A stretch of 64,000 nt of DNA from Cytophagaceae bacterium (GCA_031420365.1 JANOMP010000343.1:4386-68385), one strand, 5' to 3'; positions 5,410 through 50,964 are shown, numbered from the stretch's first letter. Numbers and translations: made by a program. Notes: a model not told the origin generated them from the letters alone.

Positions 5410-6689
5410 GGACTAATGAATTGTCTGTAATTAAGTTTTACAATTTGGCAATATTGTATAGTTCCATTCTCCATGAAATAAATGTCTTTTAATGTTGATT
5501 TTTTCAATGTCACTTTTAGATACTTTAATACCTTTTTGATATTTATGTTCGTCTAATTCAGCAATCACCCTCATTCCTTTGGTTGTTTTTACAGAACCGA
5601 TAAGATTAACAACTATCTCATAGCTTTCTAAAGGTATTCCTTTCCAATTTAATGAAATTTGAGAAAATAATCGATGTTCGATTTTATTCCATTTGCTAGT
5701 ACCCGGGGGGAAATGACAAACGGTAATTTGCATATTTGTTTGGTTTGAAAAATTTTGCAATTCTTTTTTCCAAAGATGCAATCGATATCCATTACTTCCG
5801 CCACCATCCGCATTGATTAATAATTTTCGTTGATTGGGATATGTTAATTTTCCCATACAATTCCACCATTTTCGAATACTTTCTACAGCAAACTCTCCAG
5901 TGTCGCAACTTTTCCCAACGTTGACAAAGCCGTTATTTTCGCCTATGTCATACACTCCTGGTGTAGCCTTTTCAGTCCCAAAATCATGCCCTTCAACTTC
6001 TCTAGGGTCTTTTTTTGGACGATATTCTTTGCCATTGTTTTTATAGTTACCAATCAATTCTTTCTTTTTTGTGTCAACGGAAATCACGGGCATGTTTCTT
6101 TCTAAAAATCTATTAGACAGATTGTTAATGTATTCAAATTGAGCGTTCCTGTCTATGTGTTGGTTGCCTTCCAACATTTTAGAGTTTGATTGTAAACTAT
6201 ATCCGAGCTCGTGCAACAACTCTCCAACTACTGTTTTCCCTATAATATACCCTTGCTTTTTAAGCTCAGACTCTATCGTTCGTATGCTTTTGCAAGTCCA
6301 ACGCAAAGGAGATTCAGGGCATCCTCTTGTAACTGGCTCTACCAATGATTCCAATGCCTCTAAAAGTTTGTCATTTTTAACGGTGAGTTTTTTTCTTCCA
6401 CCTCCTTTGACTCTCGTTTTAACCACATTTTTTTTAATATCTGCTAGTGGCAATGCCAATTCTTTTATGCCCTGTATAATGGTAGGCCTTGAAACATTGG
6501 AAAGTTTAGAAATGATACTATTGCCACCATAACCTATCTTTTTTGCCTCTGACCCAAGATATAAACGTTTTTGTTTTTCGTCTAAATGAGGAAGCATTTC
6601 TTTTATTGCAAGTTCTAGTTTTTCCATACTACAATGATACGTAAAATATTTATTAGTTACAAAAGTTATTTACGGACAATTACGTACTC
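5410..6689 (-). mobile_element. ISAzo13-like insertion sequence (about 1.28 kb)
   Basis: A single transposase ORF is flanked by candidate imperfect terminal inverted repeats. These are GGACTAATGAATTGTCTGTAA (5410-5430) and TTACGGACAATTACGTACTC (6670-6689), with 11/12 matches in the inner part. The exact ends and any target-site duplication are not resolved. Confidence 0.65.
5431..6627 (-). CDS. ISAzo13-family DDE transposase
   Basis: Characteristic blocks ISVDTKKKELIGN, LLINADGGGSNG, VCHFPPGTSKWNKIEHRLFS and HGEWNYTI. Confidence 0.85.
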   Translation of the reverse strand: MEKLELAIKEMLPHLDEKQKRLYLGSEAKKIGYGGNSIISKLSNVSRPTIIQGIKELALPLADIKKNVVKTRVKGGGRKKLTVKNDKLLEALESLVEPVTRGCPESPLRWTCKSIRTIESELKKQGYIIGKTVVGELLHELGYSLQSNSKMLEGNQHIDRNAQFEYINNLSNRFLERNMPVISVDTKKKELIGNYKNNGKEYRPKKDPREVEGHDFGTEKATPGVYDIGENNGFVNVGKSCDTGEFAVESIRKWWNCMGKLTYPNQRKLLINADGGGSNGYRLHLWKKELQNFSNQTNMQITVCHFPPGTSKWNKIEHRLFSQISLNWKGIPLESYEIVVNLIGSVKTTKGMRVIAELDEHKYQKGIKVSKSDIEKINIKRHLFHGEWNYTILPNCKT

Positions 6690-9436: not shown

Positions 9437-10125
9437 TTGTTTTTCAACATATAGCCCATGCCTACAATAGTATGAATTAGCTTATTTGAAGACTCTCTGT
9501 CGATTTTTTTCCTAAGGTAGTTTACATAAACTTCTATAAAATTAGTACCAGTATCAAAATTAATATCCCAGACTTTTTCAGCTATATCTACCTTAGAAAC
9601 TACTCTTCCTTTGTTTCTCATTAAGTATTCTAGTAAGTTAAATTCTTTGGCAGTAAGACTGATAACCGTATTGTTTCGTCTTGCAACTTTCTCTTTTAAG
9701 TCTAACTGTAAATCGGCCACTTGAATCATACTTTCGACTTCTGCGGAAATGGGTTCTAAGCTACGTTTTAGTAAGGCTTTAATCCTAACGAGCAGTTCCA
9801 GAAAATCAAAAGGCTTTATTAAGTAATCGTCTGTACCCACTTCAAAACCTGATAGTTTATCACTTACGCTACCTAAAGCCGTTAGCATCAAGATGGGAAT
9901 TTTTGAATTGGTTTCTCGAATTATTTTGCAAATTTCTATCCCACTCATGTCTGGTAATCCAATATCTAGAATCACTAGGTCATAGATATTTTCATTCAGC
10001 AAGTTTAATGCATCTCTCCCTGTCCCAGCAATATCTGCTATAAAGTTTTGTGTTTGAAGCCCTTTTTTTATAAACGTTGCTACTTTTTCTTCGTCTTCAA
10101 CAATCAAAATATTTTTTGATTCCAT
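9433..10125 (-). CDS. OmpR-family response regulator
   Basis: Receiver domain (ILIVEDE, DLVILDIGLPDMSG, LTALG) plus a winged-helix C-terminus. Overlaps the kinase gene by 4 nt. Confidence 0.92.
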   Translation of the reverse strand: MESKNILIVEDEEKVATFIKKGLQTQNFIADIAGTGRDALNLLNENIYDLVILDIGLPDMSGIEICKIIRETNSKIPILMLTALGSVSDKLSGFEVGTDDYLIKPFDFLELLVRIKALLKRSLEPISAEVESMIQVADLQLDLKEKVARRNNTVISLTAKEFNLLEYLMRNKGRVVSKVDIAEKVWDINFDTGTNFIEVYVNYLRKKIDRESSNKLIHTIVGMGYMLKNK

Positions 10126-15475: not shown

Positions 15476-17338
15476 TTGAGGAAAATTAATATTCTTATAG
15501 GTGTTATGCTCTTAGCATTAATAGGCTTAGTGGCATTTCAGTGGTATTGGATTCAAAATGCCATAGCTATTAAAAATGAGCAGTTTGACAAAAAAGTATT
15601 TGAAATTCTGACGGAAAGTAGCCGAAAAATAGAGAAACAAGAGATACTATTTTTGGCGAAACAACGAATGATAAACAATGAGAAAAATAGGCTTATTTCA
15701 ATTTCTAAAAAACCAAACAGCAGCCTTAAAAAAATCAAACTTCAGTCTCAAGATATAGACGTAACTGTTCATTCTCAAACTGATTCAATGAATTTTGCCT
15801 ATTCTGAAGGCAAAGTATTAAAAATTGAGCCTAGAGAGGTGTTTTCTATTGATATAAATAGTAGAAACATGGCTACCAATGATGTGCTAGGGAATAGATT
15901 TTTTATTTTTCCGGAATCAGAAGCTCAATTTATTAAAGGTTTTTTAGATGAAGAACACCGAACTGTTGAACGCTTTAGAAAGCGCTCTTTTGACTTGGCT
16001 CAAAAACAAAAAAGTATAAATGAATTGGTAAATTTAATGAATGATCCAGTTTTTACCGAAGTTTTTCCAAGTCAGAATTTGAGTCAGAGTCAGATTCAGA
16101 GCAAACGAATTGATTTTTATTTTACCCCAGAAAGTGAGCAAACCACAAATTTTAGTATTCAAAAAGGAGATTCTCAACAAAAAAAAGTAAAGAACATTTT
16201 ACCAAAAAAGAAAAATACATTAGAGAAAAACTCTGAAAATTCTGAGAAAGCAGATTTAGTAAAGGATGTTTTTAAAGATTTTATTATGGGTAAAAGATCC
16301 ATTGACGAAAGGCTTGGTCAGCTTATGCTTGATACCTTACTTCAATCGGAATTTAAAAGCAATGGTATTAAAATACCATTTAAATATAGCGTAAAAGATA
16401 ATGGGAACCTAGTTTTTGCTTCCTTTTCCCATAATGAAACTCAAAATCCACTTCAAAAAGCCTATAAAGTTAAACTATTTCCTAACGATTCCTATGCTCA
16501 AGAACAATATTTAAATGTATATTTTCCAGAGAAAGATGATTTTATTTTGGGTAACCTTTGGAATATTTTTGGGAGTTCTCTTTTATTGATTTGTATGGTA
16601 GGTGGTATTTTCTATTACTCAGTAAACACAATGCTAAGTCAGAAAAAACTTTCAAATATCAAAACTGACTTTATCAATAATATGACCCACGAACTTAAAA
16701 CACCAGTTTCTACTATTAGCTTGGCTTTAGAGGTAATTCGAGATAAAGAATTGGAGAAAAATCCTGAAAAAACAGAACGCTACCTAAATATTATTGGGGA
16801 GGAAAATAAAAGATTGGGAACGCAAATTGAGAAAGTTTTGCAAATTGCACAGCTAGAAAGTGGTGACATAAGCCTTAAATTTGAAAATCTTGATATAAAT
16901 GAGGTGTTGAATCAAGTTATAGCTAGCATGGGTGTACAATTGGAACAATTGAATGTAAAAGTTGACACCAATTTAAATGCTGCTATTCCGAATGTTGCTG
17001 CTGATAAAGTCCATTTAACAAGCATTTTTGTTAATTTATTAGATAATGCAATAAAATATTCAAAGGAATTTCCTGAAATTTTATTAAGCACAGAAAATAC
17101 AATTGGTGGAGTAGCAATAAAAATAAAAGATAATGGCATTGGAATCCCCAAAGACCAGATTAATAAAATATTTGACAAATTTTATAGGGTTCCAAAAGGC
17201 AATTTACATGATGTTAAAGGCTTTGGCTTAGGATTAAGTTATGTAAAAAGAATGCTAACATTACATGGTGGAAAAATAGCTGTATCTAGCAAAGTAAACG
17301 AAGGAAGTGAATTTTTTGTGACTCTACCAAACGCTTAA
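15476..17338 (+). CDS. Sensor histidine kinase
   Basis: H-box THELKTPV, N-box LLDNAIKYS and G-box GFGLGLSY. TTG start as in the track; the ATG at 15506 is an alternative. Confidence 0.88.
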   Translation: MRKINILIGVMLLALIGLVAFQWYWIQNAIAIKNEQFDKKVFEILTESSRKIEKQEILFLAKQRMINNEKNRLISISKKPNSSLKKIKLQSQDIDVTVHSQTDSMNFAYSEGKVLKIEPREVFSIDINSRNMATNDVLGNRFFIFPESEAQFIKGFLDEEHRTVERFRKRSFDLAQKQKSINELVNLMNDPVFTEVFPSQNLSQSQIQSKRIDFYFTPESEQTTNFSIQKGDSQQKKVKNILPKKKNTLEKNSENSEKADLVKDVFKDFIMGKRSIDERLGQLMLDTLLQSEFKSNGIKIPFKYSVKDNGNLVFASFSHNETQNPLQKAYKVKLFPNDSYAQEQYLNVYFPEKDDFILGNLWNIFGSSLLLICMVGGIFYYSVNTMLSQKKLSNIKTDFINNMTHELKTPVSTISLALEVIRDKELEKNPEKTERYLNIIGEENKRLGTQIEKVLQIAQLESGDISLKFENLDINEVLNQVIASMGVQLEQLNVKVDTNLNAAIPNVAADKVHLTSIFVNLLDNAIKYSKEFPEILLSTENTIGGVAIKIKDNGIGIPKDQINKIFDKFYRVPKGNLHDVKGFGLGLSYVKRMLTLHGGKIAVSSKVNEGSEFFVTLPNA

Positions 17339-17351
17339 AAACTAAACCCTT

Positions 17352-18029
17352 ATGAAAATACTTTTGGCAGAAGATGACCACAATTTAGGAACATTATTGC
17401 ATGAATATCTGGAGGCTAAGGGCTATGAGGTTATGCTTGCAAAAGATGGGAATGAAGGATTAGATCTATTTTTAAAACACGAATTTGATTTTTGCATTTT
17501 AGATGTAATGATGCCCAAAAAAGACGGATTTGCCTTGGCAAAGGAAATAAAAACCAAAAACTCAGAGATTCCATTAATTTTTTTAACTGCAAAGTCAATG
17601 CAAGATGACACCTTGAAAGGCTTTGAACTTGGGGCGGACGACTACATTACCAAACCGTTTAGTATGGAAGAACTTTTAGTGAGAATAAAAGCAATTCTGA
17701 AACGAACCAAAAAAATGGAAACCGAAGTTGTGGCTGGTCAATATAAGATAGGAAATTACGATTTTTTCCCAAATCAACACGAATTGCAAGCCAATGGTGT
17801 TATTCAAAAACTAACAACCAAAGAGTCAGATTTACTTTTACTTTTTAGTAAAAATTCAAACCGAGTAGTAAGTCGAAGCTATGCATTAAAACTTATCTGG
17901 GGAGACGATTCTTATTTTAATGCCCGTAGCATGGATGTTTATATTACGAAGCTTCGAAAATTTCTAAAGTCTGACCCCAGTATTCAAATCATGAATTTAC
18001 ATGGGGAAGGTTTTAAGCTGGTGTGTTGA
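17352..18029 (+). CDS. OmpR-family response regulator
   Basis: Receiver domain (ILLAEDD, DFCILDVMMPKKDG, LTAKS) plus a winged-helix domain. Confidence 0.92.
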   Translation: MKILLAEDDHNLGTLLHEYLEAKGYEVMLAKDGNEGLDLFLKHEFDFCILDVMMPKKDGFALAKEIKTKNSEIPLIFLTAKSMQDDTLKGFELGADDYITKPFSMEELLVRIKAILKRTKKMETEVVAGQYKIGNYDFFPNQHELQANGVIQKLTTKESDLLLLFSKNSNRVVSRSYALKLIWGDDSYFNARSMDVYITKLRKFLKSDPSIQIMNLHGEGFKLVC

Positions 18030-18393
18030 AGTTTTGGTTTTTCAAGTAGGATATTTGTTCTTTTAACAATTGAATCTCATTTTCTTTAGCATTCAACAAT
18101 TTCTCAAAAAGAGATTCCAATTTTTCGTTTAAGTTTGTTTCATTTATTTTGTTGCCATTTTCCATTGTGTTAGTCTCTTGGATAATCGCATTTTCTTTGG
18201 GACTAAACAATTCAGAAATATCAATCTCTAAAAATTTGACGAGTTTTTCCAAAAACTGAGGTTTAAAAGTTGTTACTTTGCCATTTTCAATACGGTTTAA
18301 AGTGGAGAGATCTATATCCAAGGCAAATGCCAAACCTTTGGCCGTAATGCCTCTCTTTTCTCTAAATAGTCTTATTTTTTCTCCAAAAATCAT
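18013..18393 (-). CDS. XRE-family HTH transcriptional regulator with coiled-coil C-terminus
   Basis: MIFGEKIRLFREKRGITAKGLAFALDIDLSTLNRIENGK is a classic Cro/C1 HTH. The C-terminus LESLFEKLLNAKENEIQLLKEQISYLK is heptad-like. Start set at ATG 18393, because the upstream TTG extension only translates the tandem repeat. Confidence 0.85.
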   Translation of the reverse strand: MIFGEKIRLFREKRGITAKGLAFALDIDLSTLNRIENGKVTTFKPQFLEKLVKFLEIDISELFSPKENAIIQETNTMENGNKINETNLNEKLESLFEKLLNAKENEIQLLKEQISYLKNQNFNTPA

Positions 18394-18395
18394 GT

Positions 18396-18427
18396 GTGAA
18401 ATTGTGAAATTGTGAAATTGTGAAATT
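18396..18427. repeat. Perfect tandem repeat (GTGAAATT)x4
   Basis: Read directly. It lies immediately 5' of the XRE ATG on the minus strand. Confidence 0.95.
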
Positions 18428-18533
18428 TCCAAAAACTTGTGCGAAATCTACAATTTATTGTTCAGAATTTTCAAACAATTTTACAAAAAATTAAAGAATT
18501 TTGATTCATCAGCTGATAACAGTGGGGGAAAAA

Positions 18534-18649
18534 ACCAACAGCCACTTTAAATTTCTGTAGGTTATAAACAAATTTTAAATTTAAATTGCATGAAAAAAGT
18601 ATTTTTGTCCGTTGTGTTAATGTTTTTTGTTTCGTTTGCTTTTGCAGAA
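18534..18649 (+). repeat. Copy 1 of the 116-bp conserved module (56-nt 5' leader plus 60-nt signal-peptide coding)
   Basis: Manual alignment with 19781-19896 and 21409-21524 shows 6-9 mismatches per 116 nt. Confidence 0.9.
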
Positions 18650-18895
18650 AATCGGGCAATTTCAAATCCAAAAAATTTCACGAGTAAAGAAGAAAAAATT
18701 GGTTTACAATTACTTGAAAATTCTACTAGGTGTTTGCAATTGTGGTTTTGCCTCAATTTATCTTGCCGTGATATTTGTATACCTATTGATCAGGAATCCG
18801 ATCTTCCTAGTACTTTAGCCGAGTTTAATAGCATTATGTATGATTGGGAAGTTGCTGCGTGCGATTATGATGATGGTTGGGGAGATAGACCATAA
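18590..18895 (+). CDS. Small secreted Cys-framework protein A (101 aa precursor)
   Basis: Sec signal MKKVFLSVVLMFFVSFAFA|EN. The mature part carries C-x4-C-x3-C-x27-C. Confidence 0.7.
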   Translation: MKKVFLSVVLMFFVSFAFAENRAISNPKNFTSKEEKIGLQLLENSTRCLQLWFCLNLSCRDICIPIDQESDLPSTLAEFNSIMYDWEVAACDYDDGWGDRP

Positions 18896-18972
18896 TCACC
18901 AGAAATAAAATAATAAGATTATAAAGCCTTAGAGAGTAAAGTAAACTTGAAATAATTCAATAACCAATACAA

Positions 18973-19776
18973 ATGACCTATTACACAAGACCTTTTTTTT
19001 TGCTTTTATTTTTTAATGTTGCTTGGGGCCAGACCCTTAAGGCAACTTATAGCTTAGATTTCATTTTTAACGAAAAAACTCCTCATAAAATATCAAAAGA
19101 AAAGTTTTCATTACTTATCTACGATACAAGTGAATCGGTATTTTTAAGCACCCCTGCATTGCATAATGATTCTCTTTTGAAAAGCATGGAAAACCTTCCC
19201 TACAGTAAAAATGGTATTTCCAATATTAAAAGTCCTTTGATAAAAACCCATTTTCAAACAATTATAACTAAAAATTATACAAATAAATTAGTCAAAGTTT
19301 ATGATACTATTTTTACGTTGAAAGGAAATTATTTATTCAATGAGAAATTAAATTGGGAAATAAAAGATAGCACAGCCAAAATTGGAGAATATAATTGCAT
19401 TTTAGCACAGGTATTTTATGCAGGTAGAAATTATGAGGCTTGGTTTACTGATGAAATTCCAATTTCGGATGGCCCCTATTTGTTTTCCGGTTTACCAGGC
19501 CTTATCGTTGAAGTATCAGATGCAAGAAAAAATTATCATTTTAAATTGCTATCATTTGAAAAAAATAATTCAAAAAAAATCAATCATTTTTATATTTCAA
19601 AAAAATCAATTCAATTTGATAGAACTGAATTTCTAAATCTCCGTCTTAGCCATCATAATGACCCAATAGGATTTATGGCAAATACATTGAATATTAAAGG
19701 TCTGGATGAAGATGTACAATCTGATATTAAAAAAAATATAAGTAAACGTAACAATTTCATGGAGTTGAATTGGTGA
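18973..19776 (+). CDS. GLPGLI-family protein A
   Basis: Signal peptide and the motif WFTDEIPISDGPYLFSGLPGLIVEVSD. Confidence 0.85.
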   Translation: MTYYTRPFFLLLFFNVAWGQTLKATYSLDFIFNEKTPHKISKEKFSLLIYDTSESVFLSTPALHNDSLLKSMENLPYSKNGISNIKSPLIKTHFQTIITKNYTNKLVKVYDTIFTLKGNYLFNEKLNWEIKDSTAKIGEYNCILAQVFYAGRNYEAWFTDEIPISDGPYLFSGLPGLIVEVSDARKNYHFKLLSFEKNNSKKINHFYISKKSIQFDRTEFLNLRLSHHNDPIGFMANTLNIKGLDEDVQSDIKKNISKRNNFMELNW

Positions 19777-19780
19777 AAAG

Positions 19781-19896
19781 ACCAACAGCCACTTTAAATT
19801 TCTGTAGGTTCTAAACAAATTTTAAATTTATATTATATGAAAAAAGTATTTTTGTCCGTTGTGTTAATGTTTTTTGTTTCATTTGCTTTTGCAGAG
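19781..19896 (+). repeat. Copy 2 of the 116-bp conserved module
   Basis: Starts 2 nt after the GLPGLI-A stop codon. 6/116 mismatches versus copy 1. Confidence 0.9.
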
Positions 19897-20142
19897 GAAA
19901 TAGTAGTAGAGAAAGTTTCTATCGATAAAAACTTACATAAAGAAGGTTTGGTTTTAAATGCATCAAACGAGAATTCAAAATGCGTTCAAAAGGCCGGGAC
20001 AAATTCTTTAGAAATAGTTACCGTAAATGAAACTGAATGCTTTATATTGAGTTGCAGAGTAGTTTGTTTTGAGGTGGATCGTTTAGTGACTGCAGATGAA
20101 GTTGAAGCTATATATGATCATTTAGACTACATTTTTTGTTAA
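19837..20142 (+). CDS. Small secreted Cys-framework protein B (101 aa precursor)
   Basis: MKKVFLSVVLMFFVSFAFA|EE. The mature part carries C-x4-C-x3-C-x23-C. Confidence 0.7.
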   Translation: MKKVFLSVVLMFFVSFAFAEEIVVEKVSIDKNLHKEGLVLNASNENSKCVQKAGTNSLEIVTVNETECFILSCRVVCFEVDRLVTADEVEAIYDHLDYIFC

Positions 20143-20178
20143 CTTCTTAATCTGCTAGTTCTCTTACATAAATAGTTC

Positions 20179-20221
20179 TTTTGCAACATTAGCGGCATTA
20201 ATACCTGTTAGTGTTGCAAAA
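20179..20221 (+). promoter_or_regulatory. Intercistronic stem-loop (10-bp perfect stem, 23-nt loop) between small gene B and GLPGLI B
   Basis: TTTTGCAACA (20179-20188) pairs with TGTTGCAAAA (20212-20221). There is no T-run after it. Confidence 0.45.
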
Positions 20222-20233
20222 TTTCACACTTAA

Positions 20234-21031
20234 ATGATGAAAAAAAATTATCTCTTTTTGCTTCTTTCTTTACCTTTATCTGCATTTTCTCAGTTTTTCG
20301 AGGCAAAATACGTGGTCAGGTTTAGAGCTAACTTGAACAATGAATCCTTTTCGGAAGAAAATTGTCATTTATTGATAAATAAGTCAACAAACAACTCTTA
20401 CTTTTTTTCAGAAAATTTTTACAAAAAAGATTCCATTGGAAATTTAATTTCAAAAAATAGGCTGTATCGCGATCCTTCAATGCAAGATCCAAACCTTAGA
20501 TTGAAAACGATGTTCTATTTTTTAATTAATAAGGATTTTGAAAAAAAAGAAATAATAACGAATGAAAGAATAGTCACTAAAATTTATACTTATCCACAGG
20601 AGATGAAGTTAAAATGGGAAATGAGTGACGACACATTAACGATAGATAATTATATCTGTCAAAAAGCAACATTAGATTTTGAAGGAAGATCCTATTCTTG
20701 TTGGTTTACTACCGAAATTGCTATCTCCGATGGCCCTTTCAAGTTCTGCGGGTTACCAGGACTCATTTTAGAAATTTCAGATACTGAGAAGCATTATAAT
20801 TTCAAAATGGTGAGTTTCCAAAAAATACAAGAAATCAAATTCAAAAAAATATATAATCAAGAAAAATCAATGGAGGTTTCATTTAACAATTTTAGGAAAA
20901 TCATCAAAGATCACAATGGAAATCCTTCTTTAGCGCTTATGGACGCAGGCTTAAAATTAACAGATGAGCAACTTAAAATGATTAATTTTGAAACAAATAG
21001 AAAGAAATCAAATCCAATTGAAAGACTTTAG
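20234..21031 (+). CDS. GLPGLI-family protein B
   Basis: Signal peptide and the motif WFTTEIAISDGPFKFCGLPGLILEISD. Confidence 0.85.
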   Translation: MMKKNYLFLLLSLPLSAFSQFFEAKYVVRFRANLNNESFSEENCHLLINKSTNNSYFFSENFYKKDSIGNLISKNRLYRDPSMQDPNLRLKTMFYFLINKDFEKKEIITNERIVTKIYTYPQEMKLKWEMSDDTLTIDNYICQKATLDFEGRSYSCWFTTEIAISDGPFKFCGLPGLILEISDTEKHYNFKMVSFQKIQEIKFKKIYNQEKSMEVSFNNFRKIIKDHNGNPSLALMDAGLKLTDEQLKMINFETNRKKSNPIERL

Positions 21032-21077
21032 AATTATCTAAATTCTGAAAATCTAAATAAAAATACATTTCGGCACA

Positions 21078-21284
21078 TTAAGAAAATAGCAACAAACCTA
21101 CTTTATTTTCATTTTTAAAATTGACGAACTTTCCCATAATATAAACTGAGGTATAAAAGTAGCTACCTTGCCATTTTCTGGTTAGTTTAAAAGGGAGAGA
21201 ATTGTATCTAAAGCAGATGCTAAAGTTTTTGTAGTAATGCCTCTCATAATCTTTAAATAGACTTGTTTTTTCTCTAAATATCAT
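21078..21284 (-). pseudogene. Decayed duplicate of the XRE regulator gene (5' part only, HTH out of frame)
   Basis: The nucleotide sequence is alignable to 18230-18393. It shares MIFxEKxxLF and ends back in frame (KFVNF versus KLVKF). The approximately 40 codons that encode the HTH in the intact copy are read in a shifted frame, and the coiled-coil part is absent. Confidence 0.6.
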
Positions 21285-21408
21285 TTTTAAAATTGTGAAA
21301 TTTTCAAAAACTTGTGCGAAATCTACAATTTATTATGTAGAATTTCCAAACAATTTTACCAAATATTAAAGAATTTTGAATCATCAGCTGATAACAGTGA
21401 GGGAAAAG

Positions 21409-21524
21409 ACCAACAGCCACTTTAAATTTCTGTAGGCTCTAAACAAATTTTAAATTTATATTTTATGAAAAAAGTATTTTTGTCCGTTGTCTTAATGTTT
21501 TTTGTTTCTATTGCGTTTGCAGAA
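21409..21524 (+). repeat. Copy 3 of the 116-bp conserved module
   Basis: 7/116 mismatches versus copy 2 and 9/116 versus copy 1. Similarity to copy 1 extends upstream through 21285-21408 into the XRE pseudogene. Confidence 0.9.
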
Positions 21525-21755
21525 GTGTCTGGAAGTAAAAAGAATTCTTTAAGAAAGACTGCTTTTATAAAAAAAGTTAAAAATTCTAATCAAAAAATTA
21601 GAACCCAACCCAAGCCAGTTTTAATGACTTGTTTTTCGTCTTCATGTATAACGTCTTGTGACCCTTCAGATACAGAATACTCTAATACTGCTATTGTTGT
21701 GATACTTGTAAGGTTAGAAAAATATTGTGATTCGATTACGTATAACTACATGTAG
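21465..21755 (+). CDS. Small secreted Cys-framework protein C (96 aa precursor)
   Basis: MKKVFLSVVLMFFVSIAFA|EV. The mature part carries C-x4-C-x3-C-x22-C. Confidence 0.7.
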   Translation: MKKVFLSVVLMFFVSIAFAEVSGSKKNSLRKTAFIKKVKNSNQKIRTQPKPVLMTCFSSSCITSCDPSDTEYSNTAIVVILVRLEKYCDSITYNYM

Positions 21756-21756
21756 G

Positions 21757-21797
21757 AATATGACCCCTCACGTTTTGTAGGGGTCATATTTTTTTTA
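21757..21797 (+). terminator. Strong intrinsic terminator 2 nt after the stop of small gene C
   Basis: 12-bp perfect stem AATATGACCCCT/AGGGGTCATATT with a 10-nt loop, followed by a T-run. Confidence 0.75.
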
Positions 21798-21825
21798 TTG
21801 TTAATTGTTAAATCAACCTAAACAC

Positions 21826-22626
21826 ATGAAAAATATAAAATTACTAATATTTTTGCAAGTTGTACCAATAGCATTATTTTCTCAAAATTTTAAATTTACA
21901 TATGAATTAAGGGCAACACCATTTATTCAAAATTCTTCCAATATCATAAATGAAATTGGCTATTTACATATTAATAAAAATATAAATTCATACTTTTTTT
22001 CAGAGAAGTTTTTGAAAATAGATTCGGCTTATAGAATACTTGATGAACAAAATGTATCACCTTATTCAGCTTTAGAAAACTTTAGCAAATTCAATGCAAA
22101 TTACTTTTTTAAAGAATTTATTGTAAAAAATTATCAAGATTCAAAAATAGAAATTTTTAGAGAATTAGGTATTGAACATTTCAAGTATCAAGTAAAAAGC
22201 GTCTTTCAGTGGGAAGTAAAAAATGAAATTGATACTTTAAACAATTTGATATGCCAAAAAGCGGTTACGACTTATTCAGGGAGGGAATATGTAGCTTGGT
22301 TTACAACAGAATTTCCATTTTCAGACGGCCCGTATGTGTTCAATGGCTTGCCTGGTTTAATTGTTAAAATTGCCGATACAAAAAACCTATTTCAATTTAA
22401 ATTAATTCACTACGAAAAAGAACCAGCATCGTTTATCCTTAAACCATTCAAATACTCAAAGGCACTTCAAATTTCTTTAAAGGATTTTATTAGTTTAAGA
22501 ATTGATTTAACAAACGACCCACTTAAACAATTCATAGATGCTGGTTTCACAATAAAGGATTCTAGAATTCCAGATATGTCGAAGACAAAAATGTCAGATA
22601 AAATAAATTACATTGAAATTGAATAA
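21826..22626 (+). CDS. GLPGLI-family protein C
   Basis: Signal peptide MKNIKLLIFLQVVPIALFSQ and the motif WFTTEFPFSDGPYVFNGLPGLIVKIAD. Start at ATG 21826. Confidence 0.85.
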   Translation: MKNIKLLIFLQVVPIALFSQNFKFTYELRATPFIQNSSNIINEIGYLHINKNINSYFFSEKFLKIDSAYRILDEQNVSPYSALENFSKFNANYFFKEFIVKNYQDSKIEIFRELGIEHFKYQVKSVFQWEVKNEIDTLNNLICQKAVTTYSGREYVAWFTTEFPFSDGPYVFNGLPGLIVKIADTKNLFQFKLIHYEKEPASFILKPFKYSKALQISLKDFISLRIDLTNDPLKQFIDAGFTIKDSRIPDMSKTKMSDKINYIEIE

Positions 22627-22879
22627 ATTGTTGTAATTACTTTCAATTTAGGAATGGTAAATTAATTTGCTCAATTCAATTTTGATTTATAAGAGTTTTT
22701 GAAAAGAAAAAGTTGAAAATGAAAGAAAAAGTTAATTTACAAACACGGCAAATGTCTTGAGGTTAATAAATTTAATTTTAAAGGGCAATAAAAATAAAAC
22801 TAAAAATTGTTTTTTTGGTCTCCAAACCATATCAATTTTGTTCGAAATTACCTATTTGCAAATAGTTGTGAAATTTTTA

Positions 22880-25534
22880 ATGAGTAAAATAACATTTTTT
22901 CGGATAATATTGGTCTTTTTTTGCTTTTTAAAAATGGAAGCTTCTTTTTCACAAATACTAATTTCAGGCAAATTGAGTGAAAAAAGCACAAAAATTCCAA
23001 TTCAAAATGCAAATATTACAATAAAAAAAATAAACTCTAAGGCAATCCTATTCTTCGGATTTTCAGATAAAAAAGGTAATTTTTTAATCGAATCAAATAT
23101 CGATTCAGATTCAGTACAACTGCATATTGGAATAATGGGGTATGCTCCCTTAGTTCTAAACCTTCTAAATTACTCTCAAAGACTTGATTTGCAACTAGAG
23201 CAAGCCGTCATTGAACTTAAAGAACTAAATATAAAACAAGAACCCATCCGTAAATTTGGTGATACGCTAAGCTATGCTATTGGCGAGTTTAAAGACAAAA
23301 ATGATCGAGTACTCGCTGATGTTTTGAAAAGACTGCCAGGCATAGAAGTTGAACCCAATGGCAGAATACTGTATCAGGGCGAACCGATAAATAAGTATTA
23401 TATTGAGGGTTTAGATCTTCTGAATGGTCGATATAAATTAGCAAACGATAACCTAAACATAGACGCTGTGCAAAGTGTAGAGGTGCTTGAAAACCATCAG
23501 CCTATCCGAATGCTGGATAGCACCGTGTTTTCTGATAAAGCCGCAATAAATATTAGGCTTAAAAAAGCAGTTACGAATTCTGGGCAGATAAATTTGGGTC
23601 TAGGTTCAACACCTTTACTTTGGGATATAAATTTAACTCCTATGTTGTTTTCAAAAAAGCTCCAAATGATTTCTACATTTCAGGGCAACAATACAGGCAA
23701 AAATAGTTCTAGTCAACTTATGCAACTTACCCCAGGCACTGTTTTTAGTGATTTAGAGGCCCGCAATAGCGATTGGGTAGGAATTCAACAGCTTTCTAGC
23801 CCCGCCTTTAAAGAAATCAGATGGCTTGATAATAATGTCAAAATAGGGTCAATGAATTTTTTAAAAAAATTAAAAGATGGCCTTGAGTTACGTTTTATAA
23901 GCGATTTTTCAAGTGATATCCAACTTCAAAATGGATCCACCAAAACTACTTTTTTTGATTCCGACAAAGAAAACATTCAACTTTTAGAAACAAAAAGAAA
24001 CAGATTGGGATTTAATTCTTCTAAAACTAGTCTTACGATACAAAAAAATACCAATGATAGGTATTTAAAAAACAGCCTTAAAATAAATGGAATTTGGAAT
24101 AATCAATTGGGGAACATTATTGGTGTTAATGGAGGGTTAAAGCAACAAACAAAACTTCCTGTATTTATTATTTCGAATAGTTATCAAGATTTTTTTAAAA
24201 TAAATAAGACGATTCTTACGCTAAATTCTTCCTCAGGTTTTGAAAATGTAAATCAGTCGTTGTCAATTTCTCCAAGCATTTTTATTGAACTATTTGGCTT
24301 GAGCAAGGCAACAGAATCTGTTCAGCAAAATGTCCAAAAAGACAAAATGTTCACTCAGAATTCTATTCAGTTTATAAAGAAAGTAAAAAAGATTTCTGTA
24401 GAGACCAGCGTAGGTTTTGATCTAAACAAAGAGGTCCTTAGGAGTGGGATAGCACTTGATTTTCCTAACGAACGGACAGTTTTAGGGCAAGATTTTAATA
24501 ACAACCTAAAATGGAGCGAACAAAAATATTACGTAAAATTAATAAATAGATTAAATCACCAAGAATGGAAAATAGCTATTACTACTCCAATTAGCTTCAA
24601 TTCATTTTTTGCTCTTGACGGTGATTTTAAAAAACAACAAACCCTAAAAACATTTGTTTTTGAACCCAGAATTAGCTTAAATCGAGAAATAAAAAATTTC
24701 TGGACATTTAATATAAACATGGGAAAAAGTAATAGGTTTGGAGATATTAACCAAATGTATTTTGGATACATTTTGAACAATTATAGAGATATAAAAAGAT
24801 TCAATGCTCCAGTTCTACAAAGTGTAAACTATTCGGGCAATATAGGATTAAACTATAGAAATCCTGTAAAAAGTACTTTTGGTTCTGTTTCATTTGCTAA
24901 CGGAAAAACCATTTCGAATTTAATCTATACTAACATAATAAATACCAACGGCAGCATTGAAAGAAATGCCTTAGAAAAAAATAATGAAGGATTTTCTCAA
25001 AATTGGAACGGACGAATTGGAAAATATTTTAGAATAATAAAAACTACATTTACGGTAAGAAATAGTGTTTTTTCGCAAAAAGGGGTTCAGGTCATTAATG
25101 AGAATGAGACTTTGGTAAAAACACAAGGAATGAAACCTAGCATTGATGTTACCTCTACTTTGAGCCCTTGGTTTAGTTTTTATTATAATTATAGTTTTTC
25201 GAGCTTTAGAAATAAAGTGGGCCGCGAAATTCGACCAAATGTTGTGCAGGAATCTCAGTTTTTAAACTTAAACTGTTTTACTAAAAATAATTTTAATTTT
25301 AGTGTAAACAATGAAATTTATATCAATAATTTTAATAATCAAAAAAACATATTTACTGATTTTTCTCTAAGAAAAACTATTGGCAAAAGGAAAATTGACT
25401 TAGAAGCCAATTATACAAATATTTTTAATTCAAATACATTACTAACTGTAAGTTCTGGTACATTTTCTTACATCGAAACAGCCTATTTGTTAAGACCCAG
25501 ACAAGCCGTGTTTAAAATTAGGTTTTCTTACTAA
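22880..25534 (+). CDS. Outer-membrane beta-barrel protein with CarboxypepD_reg-like N-domain and plug-like segment (TonB-dependent-receptor-like)
   Basis: Signal peptide MSKITFFRIILVFFCFLKMEASFSQ. ILISGKL...ANITIKK...DKKGNF resembles the CarboxypepD_reg fold. LADVLKRLPGIEVEPNGRILYQGEPI is plug-like. The remainder is a long beta-rich region ending in FKIRFSY. Confidence 0.8.
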   Translation: MSKITFFRIILVFFCFLKMEASFSQILISGKLSEKSTKIPIQNANITIKKINSKAILFFGFSDKKGNFLIESNIDSDSVQLHIGIMGYAPLVLNLLNYSQRLDLQLEQAVIELKELNIKQEPIRKFGDTLSYAIGEFKDKNDRVLADVLKRLPGIEVEPNGRILYQGEPINKYYIEGLDLLNGRYKLANDNLNIDAVQSVEVLENHQPIRMLDSTVFSDKAAINIRLKKAVTNSGQINLGLGSTPLLWDINLTPMLFSKKLQMISTFQGNNTGKNSSSQLMQLTPGTVFSDLEARNSDWVGIQQLSSPAFKEIRWLDNNVKIGSMNFLKKLKDGLELRFISDFSSDIQLQNGSTKTTFFDSDKENIQLLETKRNRLGFNSSKTSLTIQKNTNDRYLKNSLKINGIWNNQLGNIIGVNGGLKQQTKLPVFIISNSYQDFFKINKTILTLNSSSGFENVNQSLSISPSIFIELFGLSKATESVQQNVQKDKMFTQNSIQFIKKVKKISVETSVGFDLNKEVLRSGIALDFPNERTVLGQDFNNNLKWSEQKYYVKLINRLNHQEWKIAITTPISFNSFFALDGDFKKQQTLKTFVFEPRISLNREIKNFWTFNINMGKSNRFGDINQMYFGYILNNYRDIKRFNAPVLQSVNYSGNIGLNYRNPVKSTFGSVSFANGKTISNLIYTNIINTNGSIERNALEKNNEGFSQNWNGRIGKYFRIIKTTFTVRNSVFSQKGVQVINENETLVKTQGMKPSIDVTSTLSPWFSFYYNYSFSSFRNKVGREIRPNVVQESQFLNLNCFTKNNFNFSVNNEIYINNFNNQKNIFTDFSLRKTIGKRKIDLEANYTNIFNSNTLLTVSSGTFSYIETAYLLRPRQAVFKIRFSY

Positions 25535-47779: not shown

Positions 47780-48433
47780 TTGAACCTTTTAAAAGTTTCC
47801 CGAGTTTTTCGTATTGTGGATACAAAGAATAGAATATTAAAATCGGCTGAATTGCTTTTTCTTCGCTTAGGCATTAAGAGCATTACTATGGATGATATTG
47901 CTAAAGAACTTGGAATATCAAAAAAAACTATTTACCTACACTTTATTGATAAAAATCAAATCGTAAATGAAGTTATTTCAATCGCTTTGGAAAGAGAAAA
48001 AATAGAGGCCGAAGTAATTTATAAAAAAGCCAAGAACCCAATTGATGAGATTTTTCTTAGTACTAATAAAATGTATGAAATATTTGAAAATATTAATCCT
48101 GTTATGCTATTCGATTTACAAAAATATCACCCTCAAGCATGGGATAAATATTTAGCATTTAAAATAAACTTTTTAGATATAGTAAAAAGGAATATGTTAG
48201 ATGGAATTCATCAAAAATTGTACAGAAGCGATGTTGATGTTGAAATAATGGCTAAACTAAGAGTTGAATCTGTTGATTTAGCTTTTAATATGAAGATTTT
48301 TTCCCCAAAAAACTTCAAACTTATTACTGTTCAAATCCATTTTATCGACCACTTCATTAGAGGCATTGTAAGCCCAATAGGGCTGGAGATTTATGAAAAA
48401 TACAAGCAAGAATTAAAAATAAATACTTTATGA
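47780..48433 (+). CDS. TetR/AcrR-family transcriptional regulator
   Basis: HTH ITMDDIAKELGISKKTIYLHF. The start is uncertain (TTG 47780 or GTG 47816). Confidence 0.85.
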   Translation: MNLLKVSRVFRIVDTKNRILKSAELLFLRLGIKSITMDDIAKELGISKKTIYLHFIDKNQIVNEVISIALEREKIEAEVIYKKAKNPIDEIFLSTNKMYEIFENINPVMLFDLQKYHPQAWDKYLAFKINFLDIVKRNMLDGIHQKLYRSDVDVEIMAKLRVESVDLAFNMKIFSPKNFKLITVQIHFIDHFIRGIVSPIGLEIYEKYKQELKINTL

Positions 48434-49764
48434 TTAAATACATTTCGCTCTTATTTGTTTTGTTATTTAGCATTACAAAACTTGAAGCCCAATATGCTTT
48501 TAGCATAGAAGAGGCCGTAACCTTTGGATTAAAAAATCACGCAAATGTTAAAAATGCCATAGTTGGTATTCAAGATGCCGAGCTCCAAATTAAAGAAATT
48601 AAGTATGCTGGTTTGCCACTGGTAAATGGGCAGTTTTCTTATACCTACAATGCAATTGTTCCTACTTCGATTTTGCCTGCTAAAACATTCAATCCAAATG
48701 CTGCAGAGGGTGAAATATCCAAAGTAAGATTTGGAGTGCCATGGGGCGGACAGACTGGAATTGGAGTAAATCAATTAATTTTTGATGCTACTTGGTTAGT
48801 AGGGATTCGTGCAGCCGACACCTATCGAAAAATGGCCGCTCAAGAACTGGAGAAGTCGCAAATAGACATAGCAGAAAATGTTAAAAAAGCATATTATTCG
48901 GCTCTAGTGGCTGAACAGCGTGCAAATATTTTTAATTTAAATATTGCTCGTCTTGATTCAGCTATTTTTCAAACAGTGCAGTATTTTAAACAAGGTTTTG
49001 CTGAAAAAATTGATATAGATAGACTAAATGTTCAGAGGAATAATCTAGTAACTGAAAAGCAAAAAATCAAAAATTTAATTGAACTTACTTATCAATTATT
49101 GAAATTCCAAATGTCATATCCAATTGGACAGAAAATTACGCTAACAGACAAACTTGATATTGAAAATGTAAAGTTGATAAGGTCAACATTGGTGGAAGAG
49201 GTAAACCCTCAAAAAAGAATTGAGTTTTCACAAATTGAAACTTCTAGGAAACTTACCTTACTAAACGTAGAAAGAATACAAAAAGGAATTTTTCCGTCTG
49301 TTGCTTTTAATGGTAGTTTTGGGGCTGGACACGGAAATCCTGTTTTTAATCCATTTGAACGATGGTTTCCTAGTTCGGCTTTGTCTTTGGCGGTTAGAAT
49401 TCCTATTTATGATTCAGGTTTAAGAAAAGTACAGATGGAACGGCAACGTTTAAATATCATTAAAATTGATAATGGGGCGGAGTTGTTAAAAGAATCTTTT
49501 AAACTTCAAAATGAACAAGCTAAAATAAACTTAAAAAATGGTTTTGAAAGTTTGGATGTTCAGTCTAGAAATATGGATTTAGCCCAGGAAGTATTAAGTG
49601 TTTCCAAAATAAAGTACCTGCAAGGCGTTGGTTCTAACCTAGAAGTTGTAAATGCCGAGTCGGATCTTAAACAAGCTCAAAATAACTATTTCAGTGCTCT
49701 ATATGATGTTTTAATTTCTAAAGTTGATTTAGATAAAGCCCAAGGTAATTTAATTAAAAATTAA
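48430..49764 (+). CDS. TolC-family outer membrane efflux protein
   Basis: Two OEP repeats and a signal peptide. ATGA overlap with the TetR gene. Confidence 0.85.
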   Translation: MIKYISLLFVLLFSITKLEAQYAFSIEEAVTFGLKNHANVKNAIVGIQDAELQIKEIKYAGLPLVNGQFSYTYNAIVPTSILPAKTFNPNAAEGEISKVRFGVPWGGQTGIGVNQLIFDATWLVGIRAADTYRKMAAQELEKSQIDIAENVKKAYYSALVAEQRANIFNLNIARLDSAIFQTVQYFKQGFAEKIDIDRLNVQRNNLVTEKQKIKNLIELTYQLLKFQMSYPIGQKITLTDKLDIENVKLIRSTLVEEVNPQKRIEFSQIETSRKLTLLNVERIQKGIFPSVAFNGSFGAGHGNPVFNPFERWFPSSALSLAVRIPIYDSGLRKVQMERQRLNIIKIDNGAELLKESFKLQNEQAKINLKNGFESLDVQSRNMDLAQEVLSVSKIKYLQGVGSNLEVVNAESDLKQAQNNYFSALYDVLISKVDLDKAQGNLIKN

Positions 49765-49783
49765 AAAATTTACGAAAAATAAT

Positions 49784-50932
49784 ATGAAACAAAATAGACA
49801 AAAATTTATCATCGCTTTTGCAACTATCATCTTAATAGTATCCGTCGTTTCGTGTGGTAAAAAAGAAGACAACACCCTGTTAGGGAAAAAAGCACAATTA
49901 GCGGAATTAAAAAAAGAGCAACTGGCTGTTAATGATAAAATAACAAATCTTCAAAAAGAAATAGAAAAGCTGGAGCCTTCAAAAGAAGAAAAAGTTAAAA
50001 CCGTGGTGGCATCACCTGTTTTAGCTTCAAATTTTCAACATTTTGTTGAATCTACTGGTAGGCTAGAAGCAGAAAACAACGTATTTGTAAGTCCTCAAAT
50101 GGGTGGAGCTATCACTAAAATTTTTGTAAAAGTGGGAGACTTTGTTACCAAAGGACAAAAAATTGCGACTTTGGATAACTCGATATTGAGAAACTCAATT
50201 CAAGAAGTTCAACTTCAACTTGAAACCGCAAAAACAATTTTTGAAAGACAAAAGAATCTTTGGGATCAAAAAATAGGAACAGAAGTACAATATATTCAAG
50301 CTAAATCTTCTGTGGAATCATTAGAGCGTCGGATTGTAACTTTGCGTTCACAAGATGGAATGAATGTAGTTTTATCTCCAATTTCTGGAGTTGTAGATGA
50401 AGTAAGGCTTAAAGAAGGCGAAATAGCTGCACCAGGTTTGGGTATTTTGAGAGTGGTAAATCTAAATGATTTAAAGGTAGTTGCAAATATTTCCGATACC
50501 TATGCGGGTACCATTTCGAAAGGAAACTTGATCTCCATTAAATTTCCTGATTTAAATAAAGAGATTAAAACTGTTATTAGCTATGTAAGTCAAACTATTA
50601 ATCCGGCTTCTAGGACTTTTACAGTAGAAGCTAAAGTGCCAAATATAGACAAATCGCTAAAGCCTAATCTTTTAGCAATTGTTAGTATTAATGACCAGTC
50701 GAAAGGTGGAGCAATTGTTATTCCACAAAATTTAGTCCAAAACACCGAGCAGGGATCAATAGTTTATGTAATAGAATCAGAAGGAAATAAAAAAATTGCC
50801 CGGTCTAGAATTATAACGTCTGGCCTTACCTATGACGGAAAAGTGGAGATAAAATCTGGCTTAAAAGTAGGTGATACATTAATTACTGAAGGCTATCAAG
50901 AGATTGTTGACGGCCAATTGGTGAACTATTAA
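49784..50932 (+). CDS. RND efflux periplasmic adaptor (MFP)
   Basis: Lipobox VSC, a coiled-coil hairpin and barrel-sandwich hybrid motifs. Confidence 0.88.
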   Translation: MKQNRQKFIIAFATIILIVSVVSCGKKEDNTLLGKKAQLAELKKEQLAVNDKITNLQKEIEKLEPSKEEKVKTVVASPVLASNFQHFVESTGRLEAENNVFVSPQMGGAITKIFVKVGDFVTKGQKIATLDNSILRNSIQEVQLQLETAKTIFERQKNLWDQKIGTEVQYIQAKSSVESLERRIVTLRSQDGMNVVLSPISGVVDEVRLKEGEIAAPGLGILRVVNLNDLKVVANISDTYAGTISKGNLISIKFPDLNKEIKTVISYVSQTINPASRTFTVEAKVPNIDKSLKPNLLAIVSINDQSKGGAIVIPQNLVQNTEQGSIVYVIESEGNKKIARSRIITSGLTYDGKVEIKSGLKVGDTLITEGYQEIVDGQLVNY

Positions 50933-50964
50933 TTCCACATTTACCAATTTTCAAAAATTAATAT

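Follow-up and report, generated by a model that had tools for sequence, protein, structure and literature searches.

A stretch of 64,000 nucleotides (nt) from a Cytophagaceae bacterium (GCA_031420365.1, JANOMP010000343.1:4386-68385), referred to here as the window, contains between positions 18013 and 25534 a tandem array of three two-gene cassettes followed by one gene for an outer-membrane barrel protein. Each cassette consists of a gene for a small secreted four-cysteine protein (hereafter s; sA, sB and sC) and a gene for a protein of the GLPGLI family. The arrangement recurs in other Bacteroidota, and the s proteins constitute a new small-protein family outside Pfam and NCBIfam. We tentatively read the s-GLPGLI-barrel combination as an envelope module composed of a ligand, its cognate carrier and a TonB-receptor-like barrel, which probably works in export, a reading that we consider quite possible while holding it short of probable. 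No description of the operon or of the small-protein family was found in the literature searched. The GC content of this bacterium is about 30%. The features of the locus are the following:

18013..18393, minus strand: XRE-family helix-turn-helix (HTH) regulator, divergent from small gene A; HTH_3 E 3e-11
18395..18427, no strand: 8-nt tandem repeat (TGTGAAAT)x4; 4.1 copies in TRF, 100% match
18528..18648, plus strand: conserved block A; 62-nt leader and sA signal-peptide codons
18590..18895, plus strand: sA, small secreted four-Cys protein, 101 aa, with DDGWGD tail
18973..19776, plus strand: GLPGLI-A; TIGR01200 E 5e-43; predicted LolA-like/NBL bowl fold; signal peptidase I (SPase-I) signal with Gln at +1
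19775..19895, plus strand: conserved block B; begins inside the GLPGLI-A stop codon; recombination junction in strain L098
19837..20142, plus strand: sB, small secreted four-Cys protein, 101 aa
20234..21031, plus strand: GLPGLI-B; TIGR01200 E 2e-41; PNGase_F-II_N 30.6 bits
21078..21310, minus strand: decayed 5' remnant of a second XRE copy, produced by duplication, with its upstream region; recognised by DNA identity; broken frame
21403..21523, plus strand: conserved block C
21465..21755, plus strand: sC, small secreted four-Cys protein, 96 aa
21826..22626, plus strand: GLPGLI-C; TIGR01200 E 5e-42
22853..22874, no strand: TTGTGAAAT preceded by the palindrome TATTTGCAAATA, 6 nt ahead of the ATG of the barrel; candidate operator
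22880..25534, plus strand: outer-membrane barrel, 884 aa, with probable CarboxypepD_reg N-terminal extension and plug-like region; possibly of the Oar/SusC type and like TonB-dependent transporters (TBDTs)

All nine open reading frames (ORFs) that an earlier note on this DNA had described were recovered in the ORF list at the same positions; the size that it had given for the mature small proteins (76-81 aa) was inaccurate, the actual values being 82, 82 and 77 aa. The decayed XRE copy that it had proposed is real, positions 21143-21308 displaying 77-83% DNA identity to 18253-18417, which comprises the 5' end of the XRE gene and the region upstream. As that note had also stated, the locus showed no maturase of ribosomally synthesised and post-translationally modified peptides (RiPPs), C39-ABC exporter, C-terminal domain of the type IX secretion system (T9SS) or toxin domain, and none of the s, GLPGLI and barrel proteins matched the Por_Secre_tail domain of T9SS cargo (Pfam, NCBIfam).

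Recurrence of the s-GLPGLI adjacency was analyzed in a diverse set of 80 GLPGLI loci, taken from representative genomes of GTDB, which contained 141 GLPGLI genes and 384 control genes, by means of a profile-free test that scored same-strand ORFs just upstream with 50-150 aa, a signal peptide and at least three Cys. Such an ORF preceded 36 of the 141 GLPGLI genes vs. 1 of the 384 control genes (Fisher p = 2e-21), this position upstream of GLPGLI being enriched about 130-fold over control genes. The adjacency in other genomes, which the earlier note had set beforehand as the test of its proposal, thus recurs widely. Nearly all of the upstream ORFs displayed the pattern C...[ST]CG...C followed by an acidic helix and then a further C, and the smallest mature form was of about 34 aa. 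Remote s relatives were located upstream of GLPGLI genes, with a barrel gene where the contig permits, in Emticicia, Runella and uncultured taxa. The order was Crp-like regulator – s – GLPGLI – GLPGLI – 887-aa CarboxypepD_reg barrel in Emticicia aquatilis (L092), and in metagenomes it was divergent YdaS-type HTH – s – GLPGLI – 885-aa barrel (L095-97), divergent HTH_3 – s – GLPGLI (L094) or s – GLPGLI (L091).

The link to the downstream barrel, to which the earlier note had also drawn attention, was the strongest synteny signal. A homologous barrel was encoded in 53 of the 71 GLPGLI clusters with enough flanking sequence to be judged (75%; 86 clusters in total), being the last gene in 47 and the first in 6, with a median GLPGLI-to-barrel gap of 10 nt. 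An s gene was present in 32 of the 86 clusters (37%), and s was followed by GLPGLI in 35 of 36 cases and by the barrel in none. These counts indicated that GLPGLI and the barrel are the core pair and that s is a frequent accessory tied to GLPGLI. The usual operon was [s]–GLPGLI×1-4–barrel, with GB, sGB, sGGB and BGG as common layouts (G, GLPGLI; B, barrel); arrays with more than one s gene were rare (4 clusters), the sG-sG-sG-B order of the window being the richest seen. The strict 1:1 pairing claimed from the window alone therefore holds within it but not in the family as a whole, where one s gene may precede one to three GLPGLI genes and most operons present no detectable s gene. In operons without s no alternative small signal-peptide ORF was found, a few degenerate cases apart. 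Genes flanking the module differed from locus to locus and were housekeeping genes or two-component systems.

The signal peptides of sA, sB and sC are identical at 19 of 20 residues and, as had been recognised from the sequence, are classical Sec/SPase-I signals ending in AFA|E, whereas the mature proteins have only the C-x4-C-x3-C...C skeleton in common. No Pfam or NCBIfam family matched the three proteins, nor ten diverse members of the s family. A word-indexed search of 5.8 billion proteins recovered sA, sB, sC and a single fragment and nothing else; a dozen further s-like proteins of 79-120 aa with the same layout were found when 1.84 billion cluster representatives were scanned exhaustively with HMMER. 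The four Cys were invariant in an alignment of 14 sequences; in an alignment of 38 sequences, which covered Flavobacteriales, Cytophagales, Bacteroidales, Chitinophagales and Marinilabiliales, three Cys were invariant and the fourth was present in at least 90%. Every Cys was also kept in seven allelic variants of sC. Gene callers predicted the small ORFs in 17 contigs, and database copies carry the label "hypothetical protein". In the AlphaFold2 model, a disordered K/E-rich linker is followed by a confident core (pLDDT 85-90) consisting of a β-hairpin with three Cys and a helix that ends at the fourth Cys; the predicted geometry suggests two disulfides. Foldseek with this model found no related solved structure (best E 2.3).

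A subgroup of s proteins resembling sA (sA, P0008, P0013 and the first s protein of L098, s1) shared a conserved acidic tail, DDGWGD(R), behind the last Cys, and the sB-like and sC-like groups were without it. A 456-aa repeat protein (P0011) with five copies of a PSCATFCDQIDRTL unit matched the s profile at E 2e-4 and was taken as spurious or unrelated on account of its non-bacterial-looking composition. The s genes did not present the features of a RiPP or class II bacteriocin locus: the N-terminus of s is a Sec signal instead of a double-glycine or RiPP leader, and the best matches among the NCBIfam bacteriocin and RiPP precursor models (elgicin, E 0.03; mycofactocin, E 0.075) were far below the cut-offs.

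Assignment of the three larger cassette proteins to the GLPGLI family, as made in the earlier note, was borne out by TIGR01200 scores of 147.5, 142.5 and 144.2 bits for GLPGLI-A, -B and -C, respectively (cut-off 50 bits). The GLPGLI motif is invariant in the three proteins (around 266 aa each), which as paralogues have diverged to about 30% identity; the closest match to a window GLPGLI protein among the scanned GTDB representatives was of 37%. The AlphaFold2 model of GLPGLI-A (mean pLDDT 90.4) matched the NBL domain of PNGase F-II (4R4Z, 7ZGN; Foldseek E 3.5e-10 to 1.4e-7, probability 1.00, TMq 0.49-0.54), and the NBL model PF22252 (cut-off 27.6 bits) was matched by GLPGLI-B above the cut-off (30.6 bits) and by GLPGLI-A below it (25.7 bits), with no match to GLPGLI-C. 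Structures of LolA, LolB and related lipid carriers also matched GLPGLI-A, among them 9tp6 (LolA3 of Porphyromonas gingivalis, E 6.7e-6) and 2w7q (E 1.4e-4); many such fold matches were obtained at E 7e-6 to 1e-3 with probability 0.97-1.0 and modest TM-scores of 0.27-0.54. LolA/LolB sequence models did not appear among the Pfam and NCBIfam matches of the GLPGLI proteins. GLPGLI signal peptides were of the SPase-I type with Gln at +1 in 115 of 124 proteins and had a lipobox in none of the 124.

The NBL domain of PNGase F-II is structurally unique, has no known role and is dispensable for catalysis, and a periplasmic location is predicted for Bacteroides PNGases bearing it (PMC9522356). In entry 7ZGN, its depositors gave the domain the name GLPGLI family protein. 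GLPGLI proteins have also been detected in the proteomes of outer-membrane vesicles (OMVs) of Tannerella forsythia (PMC10682907). No function assigned to GLPGLI/Porph_ging (TIGR01200 / PF09697) was found in the literature searched, in line with the earlier note, although a structure of the NBL domain has been solved (4R4Z, 7ZGN; PMC9522356). At their extreme C-terminus the GLPGLI proteins carry a conserved N-N-P-I-E-L-like motif (19750-19776, 21005-21031 and 22600-22626 in the window), in which Asn was present in at least 90% of the 62 aligned GLPGLI sequences and Glu was invariant; the motif may serve as a peptide for docking to the barrel.

Among 28 members of the barrel family, matches at E ≤ 0.01 were obtained to PF13620 (CarboxypepD_reg) in 24, to PF13715 in 19, to Plug (PF07715) in 6 and to OMP_b-brl_3 (PF14905) in only 1, and the TonB_dep_Rec barrel domain (PF00593) had no match in the family. 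The window barrel itself remained below the thresholds for CarbopepD_reg_2 (29 bits, cut-off 32.2) and Plug (18.8 bits, cut-off 23.9). The profile of the family matched the SusC N-terminal domain 8aa4 (E 1.3e-8), and its matches to the barrels of iron-transporting TBDTs in PDB were weak (E 0.13-5.3). In the family consensus, ELKEVxVK...GDTLSY...PGIEV...YQG...IEGLDL, the segment ELKEVxVK was read by eye from the alignment as TonB-box-like. These matches weakly suggest, and do not prove, that the barrel is TBDT-like and of the type with an Oar/SusC N-terminal extension. Gene callers placed the start of the barrel variously across contigs, giving 925, 908 or 866 aa.

Several properties were consistent with a partnership between s and GLPGLI. 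The s cores were acidic in 94% of the pairs (mean charge -4.3), and GLPGLI proteins adjoining s were more basic, with a charge of +5.1 vs. +1.9 for the others (Mann-Whitney p = 0.007, uncorrected for phylogeny). A binding or chaperone role for GLPGLI, which the earlier note had put forward, is compatible with this charge complementarity and with the predicted LolA-like bowl. The s-associated GLPGLI proteins clustered only weakly (p = 0.012), and a clean s-associated subfamily was rejected for that reason. No Rosetta-stone fusions of s and GLPGLI were found, long GLPGLI entries being the result of mis-called starts.

Alignment of the regions upstream of the small genes showed that a block of about 120 nt, made up of about 60 nt of leader and the signal-peptide codons, is near-identical in the three cassettes, the identity ending exactly at the signal-peptidase site. 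Cassettes A and C have a further 180 nt or so upstream in common (91% identity). The block had no Rfam match, and shuffled sequence folded with a minimum free energy at least as favourable (z +0.6 to +1.1); on these grounds a structured RNA was rejected as the explanation of its conservation. The paralogous s genes of L037 and L052 likewise presented identical 5' ends and divergent mature parts. The leader motif AACAGCCACWTTAAAWTTCTG of the window was also found in L094, whose s protein (P0016) is 24% identical to sA in full-length alignment.

The closely related strain L098 (1-4273, Logan ERR14788468) has cassettes A and C only, cassette B and the XRE remnant being absent, and is identical to the window at the protein level by 87% for GLPGLI-A, 99% for GLPGLI-C and 92% for the barrel. 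Its deletion junction falls inside the conserved block, which indicated that the cassette array alters by recombination at this block. The ratio of nonsynonymous to synonymous substitution rates (dN/dS) between the window and L098 was 0.54 for sA, 0.19 for GLPGLI-A and 0.19 for the barrel; sC and GLPGLI-C were too alike between the two for this ratio. Within-population dN/dS over ten metagenome contigs yielded no estimate, since variation was insufficient and sB and sC, with their identical 5' ends, could not be anchored unambiguously.

The XRE gene of the window matched HTH_3 with 43.5 bits (cut-off 23), and for its start the ATG at 18393, which gives the 126 aa called in ten metagenome contigs, is a likelier candidate than the TTG at 18432. 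A divergent HTH_3 gene was also found at L019 and L094. The regulator beside the module varied by taxon and was of the HTH_3/XRE, YdaS-like, cNMP/Crp-like, TetR or response-regulator class. XRE was therefore rejected as a conserved fourth component and is regarded as local to the clade of the window; control of the pairs by XRE, as earlier suggested, is not a feature of the family. The (TGTGAAAT) repeat directly upstream of the XRE ATG occurred in 3, 4 or 5 copies across metagenome contigs, and in one scaffold it is interrupted by a gap; the repeat is possibly a slipped-strand, phase-variable promoter element. Five of the six copies of TTGTGAAAT in the 64-kb window lie in this locus, with sites upstream of sC (21293-21301) and 6 nt before the barrel ATG, the latter beside the perfect palindrome TATTTGCAAATA; TTGTGAAAT/TATTTGCAAATA is a candidate operator common to the promoters of the locus. 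Promoter scans of the locus for σ70-type sites and for the Bacteroidota -33/-7 pattern yielded no more than chance would in DNA so rich in AT, and the terminator scan detected no plus-strand terminator inside the array.

A histidine kinase and an OmpR-type response regulator are encoded directly upstream (15476-18029), the 3' end of the response-regulator gene overlapping the convergent XRE 3' end by 17 nt. Linkage to a two-component system of this kind was not seen in the other taxa with the module. In Riemerella anatipestifer, several GLPGLI genes, along with hypothetical genes nearby, are under the direct control of PhoP, a regulator of the OmpR type (PMC9603813). In an Emticicia-like group, a conserved GC-rich hairpin (AAGCCCCC...GGGGGCTT) and a T-rich stretch preceded each s gene (L091, ~135-200; L092, ~9915-9975; L093; L018, ~5460-5520), and an analogous hairpin was present upstream of both s genes of L062. 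This element, which is different from the leader in the window, may act as an attenuator or processing site. The Crp/cNMP-like regulator of E. aquatilis was split into overlapping ORFs of 91 and 106 aa (L092, 9252-9828; L093, 3-305), which suggests a frameshift or a pseudogene in that assembly. Farther away in the window, positions 47780-54387 contain an ordinary, unrelated RND efflux operon (an OEP outer-membrane factor, a 1140-aa AcrB-type pump and others).

In the reading that we tentatively prefer, the small gene would give a Sec-exported protein whose core of about 40 aa, a β-hairpin plus an acidic helix, is probably pinned by two disulfides. Once oxidised in the periplasm, s would be bound by the GLPGLI protein encoded directly downstream, a soluble, SPase-I-processed carrier with a putative LolA-like bowl. 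This carrier would work with the barrel at the end of the operon, which most likely passes s out across the outer membrane in the manner of Oar and PopC. Both s and its carrier would diversify as a pair and the barrel would stay generic, which would explain why three divergent s-GLPGLI cassettes are served by one barrel. The near-identical 120-nt blocks would be the substrates of homologous recombination by which cassettes are added, removed and reshuffled. Fast evolution of s, conserved export signals and differences in cassette content between strains suggest that the module acts outside the cell in a way particular to the strain, for instance in competition or signalling. A wider version, in which the locus represents an undescribed phylum-wide Bacteroidota envelope system where s/LolA-fold specificity pairs and a TonB-powered barrel send or receive a strain-specific signal or weapon, with block-recombined arrays and a repeat-number switch tuning expression, seems to us rather doubtful.

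Some observations weigh against the export module. TBDTs normally import, and the TBDT identity of the barrel itself would stand on sub-threshold matches (Plug 18.8 vs. 23.9 bits; PDB E 0.13-5). No s gene was detectable in 63% of the GLPGLI clusters, and because most operons lack s, GLPGLI and the barrel must act without it. The s-associated GLPGLI proteins formed no clean clade, the nearest neighbour being also s-associated in 21 of 38 cases, and dN/dS of s was below 1 wherever the substitution count was adequate. The s proteins are acidic, unlike most pore-forming bacteriocins, and display no toxin domain.

The absence of s from that 63% of clusters, with GLPGLI and the barrel as the core pair, would equally be expected of an uptake module, in which the barrel is a TonB-dependent importer, GLPGLI a LolA-like protein that accepts a hydrophobic nutrient or lipid in the periplasm, and s an optional accessory that might, for example, be released as a scavenger, present a ligand or modulate the carrier in the periplasm. 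All well-studied TBDTs import, the gene for a binding protein typically follows TBDT genes in Bacteroidota, LolA-type folds bind lipids and hydrophobic moieties, and variable neighbouring regulators (TetR, Crp, response regulator) are usual for nutrient and stress operons. Uptake is nevertheless unlikely in our judgement: no inner-membrane transporter is conserved beside the module, three very different s proteins would have to share one barrel, and a hypervariable s with conserved export signals and cassette turnover is unusual for nutrient scavengers. Those same properties, a conserved leader and signal joined to a hypervariable disulfide-rich mature part, are typical of polymorphic toxin and bacteriocin loci, and they could be explained if s were a bacteriocin-like peptide exported by Sec, against which the GLPGLI protein encoded downstream confers immunity in the periplasm. 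GLPGLI-only arrays, which are common, would then be orphan immunity genes, and the barrel would be either the exit for the toxin or functionally unrelated. Cassette arrays with strain-specific content, recombination at conserved 5' blocks and the adjoining XRE-type regulator and phase-variable-looking repeat agree with this. However, no toxin domain was found, NCBIfam bacteriocin models gave no match (elgicin E 0.03, mycofactocin E 0.075), the core is acidic rather than cationic, a 270-aa soluble LolA-like protein would be unusual for immunity, and immunity alone leaves the near-constant, tight GLPGLI-barrel linkage unaccounted for; we thus regard a toxin-immunity pair as quite unlikely.

The linkage of GLPGLI to the barrel, which holds without s, also has a place in a two-partner-like arrangement where GLPGLI is the cargo, the barrel displays or releases the GLPGLI bowls, s is a small subunit or co-factor in the bowl, and the NBL domain of PNGase F-II would be a targeting or anchoring module. 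Strong divergence of the paralogues (about 30% identity), as in surface proteins, the dispensability of NBL for PNGase catalysis (PMC9522356) and the occurrence of GLPGLI proteins in OMV preparations (PMC10682907) fit with it; export of a folded 30-kDa LolA-fold β-protein by a TBDT-like barrel has no precedent, however, and the NBL-bearing Bacteroides PNGases are predicted to be periplasmic (PMC9522356), so that this arrangement appears improbable. Least of all do we expect the small ORFs to be non-functional, either chance ORFs or remnants of a duplicated promoter/leader segment, which is hardly conceivable: although no database family covers the small proteins and the 5' block is conserved at the DNA level with its non-coding part included, homologues with invariant Cys and conserved position exist in several orders, the core is predicted with confidence (pLDDT 85-90), dN/dS of sA is 0.54, and gene callers predicted these ORFs in 17 contigs.

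GLPGLI/Porph_ging proteins form a large paralogous family in Porphyromonas, Tannerella, Riemerella, Elizabethkingia, Chryseobacterium and many environmental Bacteroidota, and the present results provide three handles on it, namely the predicted LolA-like bowl fold, the near-constant barrel partner and the four-Cys protein as a candidate ligand. The small genes beside GLPGLI genes amount to hundreds that are unannotated or labelled hypothetical. The family is experimentally testable because tractable species carry the module, among them R. anatipestifer (P0126, on 76 contigs) and E. aquatilis (WP_188769382.1). If the export reading is true, TBDT-dependent secretion of proteins would extend beyond the single case of Oar and PopC and would involve a periplasmic protein dedicated to carrying the cargo. 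Should specificity be determined by the pairs, a new class of loci for interaction at the strain level would exist in Bacteroidota, both host-associated and environmental, and such a specificity-pair system would be a route of kin discrimination or peptide communication with no characterised homologue for the three parts.

Relatives can be recognised for the individual parts (for GLPGLI, proteins with the NBL/LolA fold; for the barrel, those of the Oar/SusC type), and the module as a whole resembles several known systems to different extents. Like Sec-dependent class II bacteriocins and conotoxin-style genes, s combines a conserved export signal with a hypervariable, disulfide-stabilised mature protein, and like bacteriocin/immunity loci the array has tandem cassettes, each with a downstream partner, that are gained or lost between strains. 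In contrast with those cassettes, the s core is acidic, the partner is a soluble β-protein of 270 aa, neither an ABC/C39 exporter nor a membrane immunity protein is present, and the barrel is a conserved third part. SusC/SusD loci resemble the module in the N-terminal domain of SusC homologues, which the barrel profile matches (8aa4, E 1.3e-8), and in the position of a presumed binding-protein gene immediately next to that of the barrel. SusD, however, is an α-helical surface lipoprotein encoded after SusC, whereas GLPGLI is a non-lipidated, predicted β-bowl usually encoded before the barrel in 1-4 copies, and the loci studied here are without glycan-degrading genes.

LolA and LolB, including LolA3 of P. 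gingivalis (9tp6; PMC13103446, PMC11885536), belong to the same fold class, an open β-barrel or bowl closed by helices, and are soluble periplasmic proteins, as is predicted for GLPGLI; GLPGLI differs from them in having no sequence-level relationship, TM-scores of only 0.27-0.54 and, as operon partner, the barrel instead of LolCDE. Oar of Myxococcus xanthus, which possesses a CarboxypepD_reg N-terminal extension, a plug and a TonB box, moves PopC from the periplasm to the outside (PMC6434023). The barrel family appears to share with Oar the N-terminal extension and a plug-like segment, the plug and barrel here being detected only below threshold, and the Oar system has no LolA-like partner or small Cys protein. 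The NBL domain of PNGase F-II (4R4Z, 7ZGN; PMC9522356) is homologous to GLPGLI, PF22252 being matched by GLPGLI-B and, below the cut-off, by GLPGLI-A; in that protein the domain is fused to an enzyme, whereas here it stands alone and is encoded together with s and the barrel.

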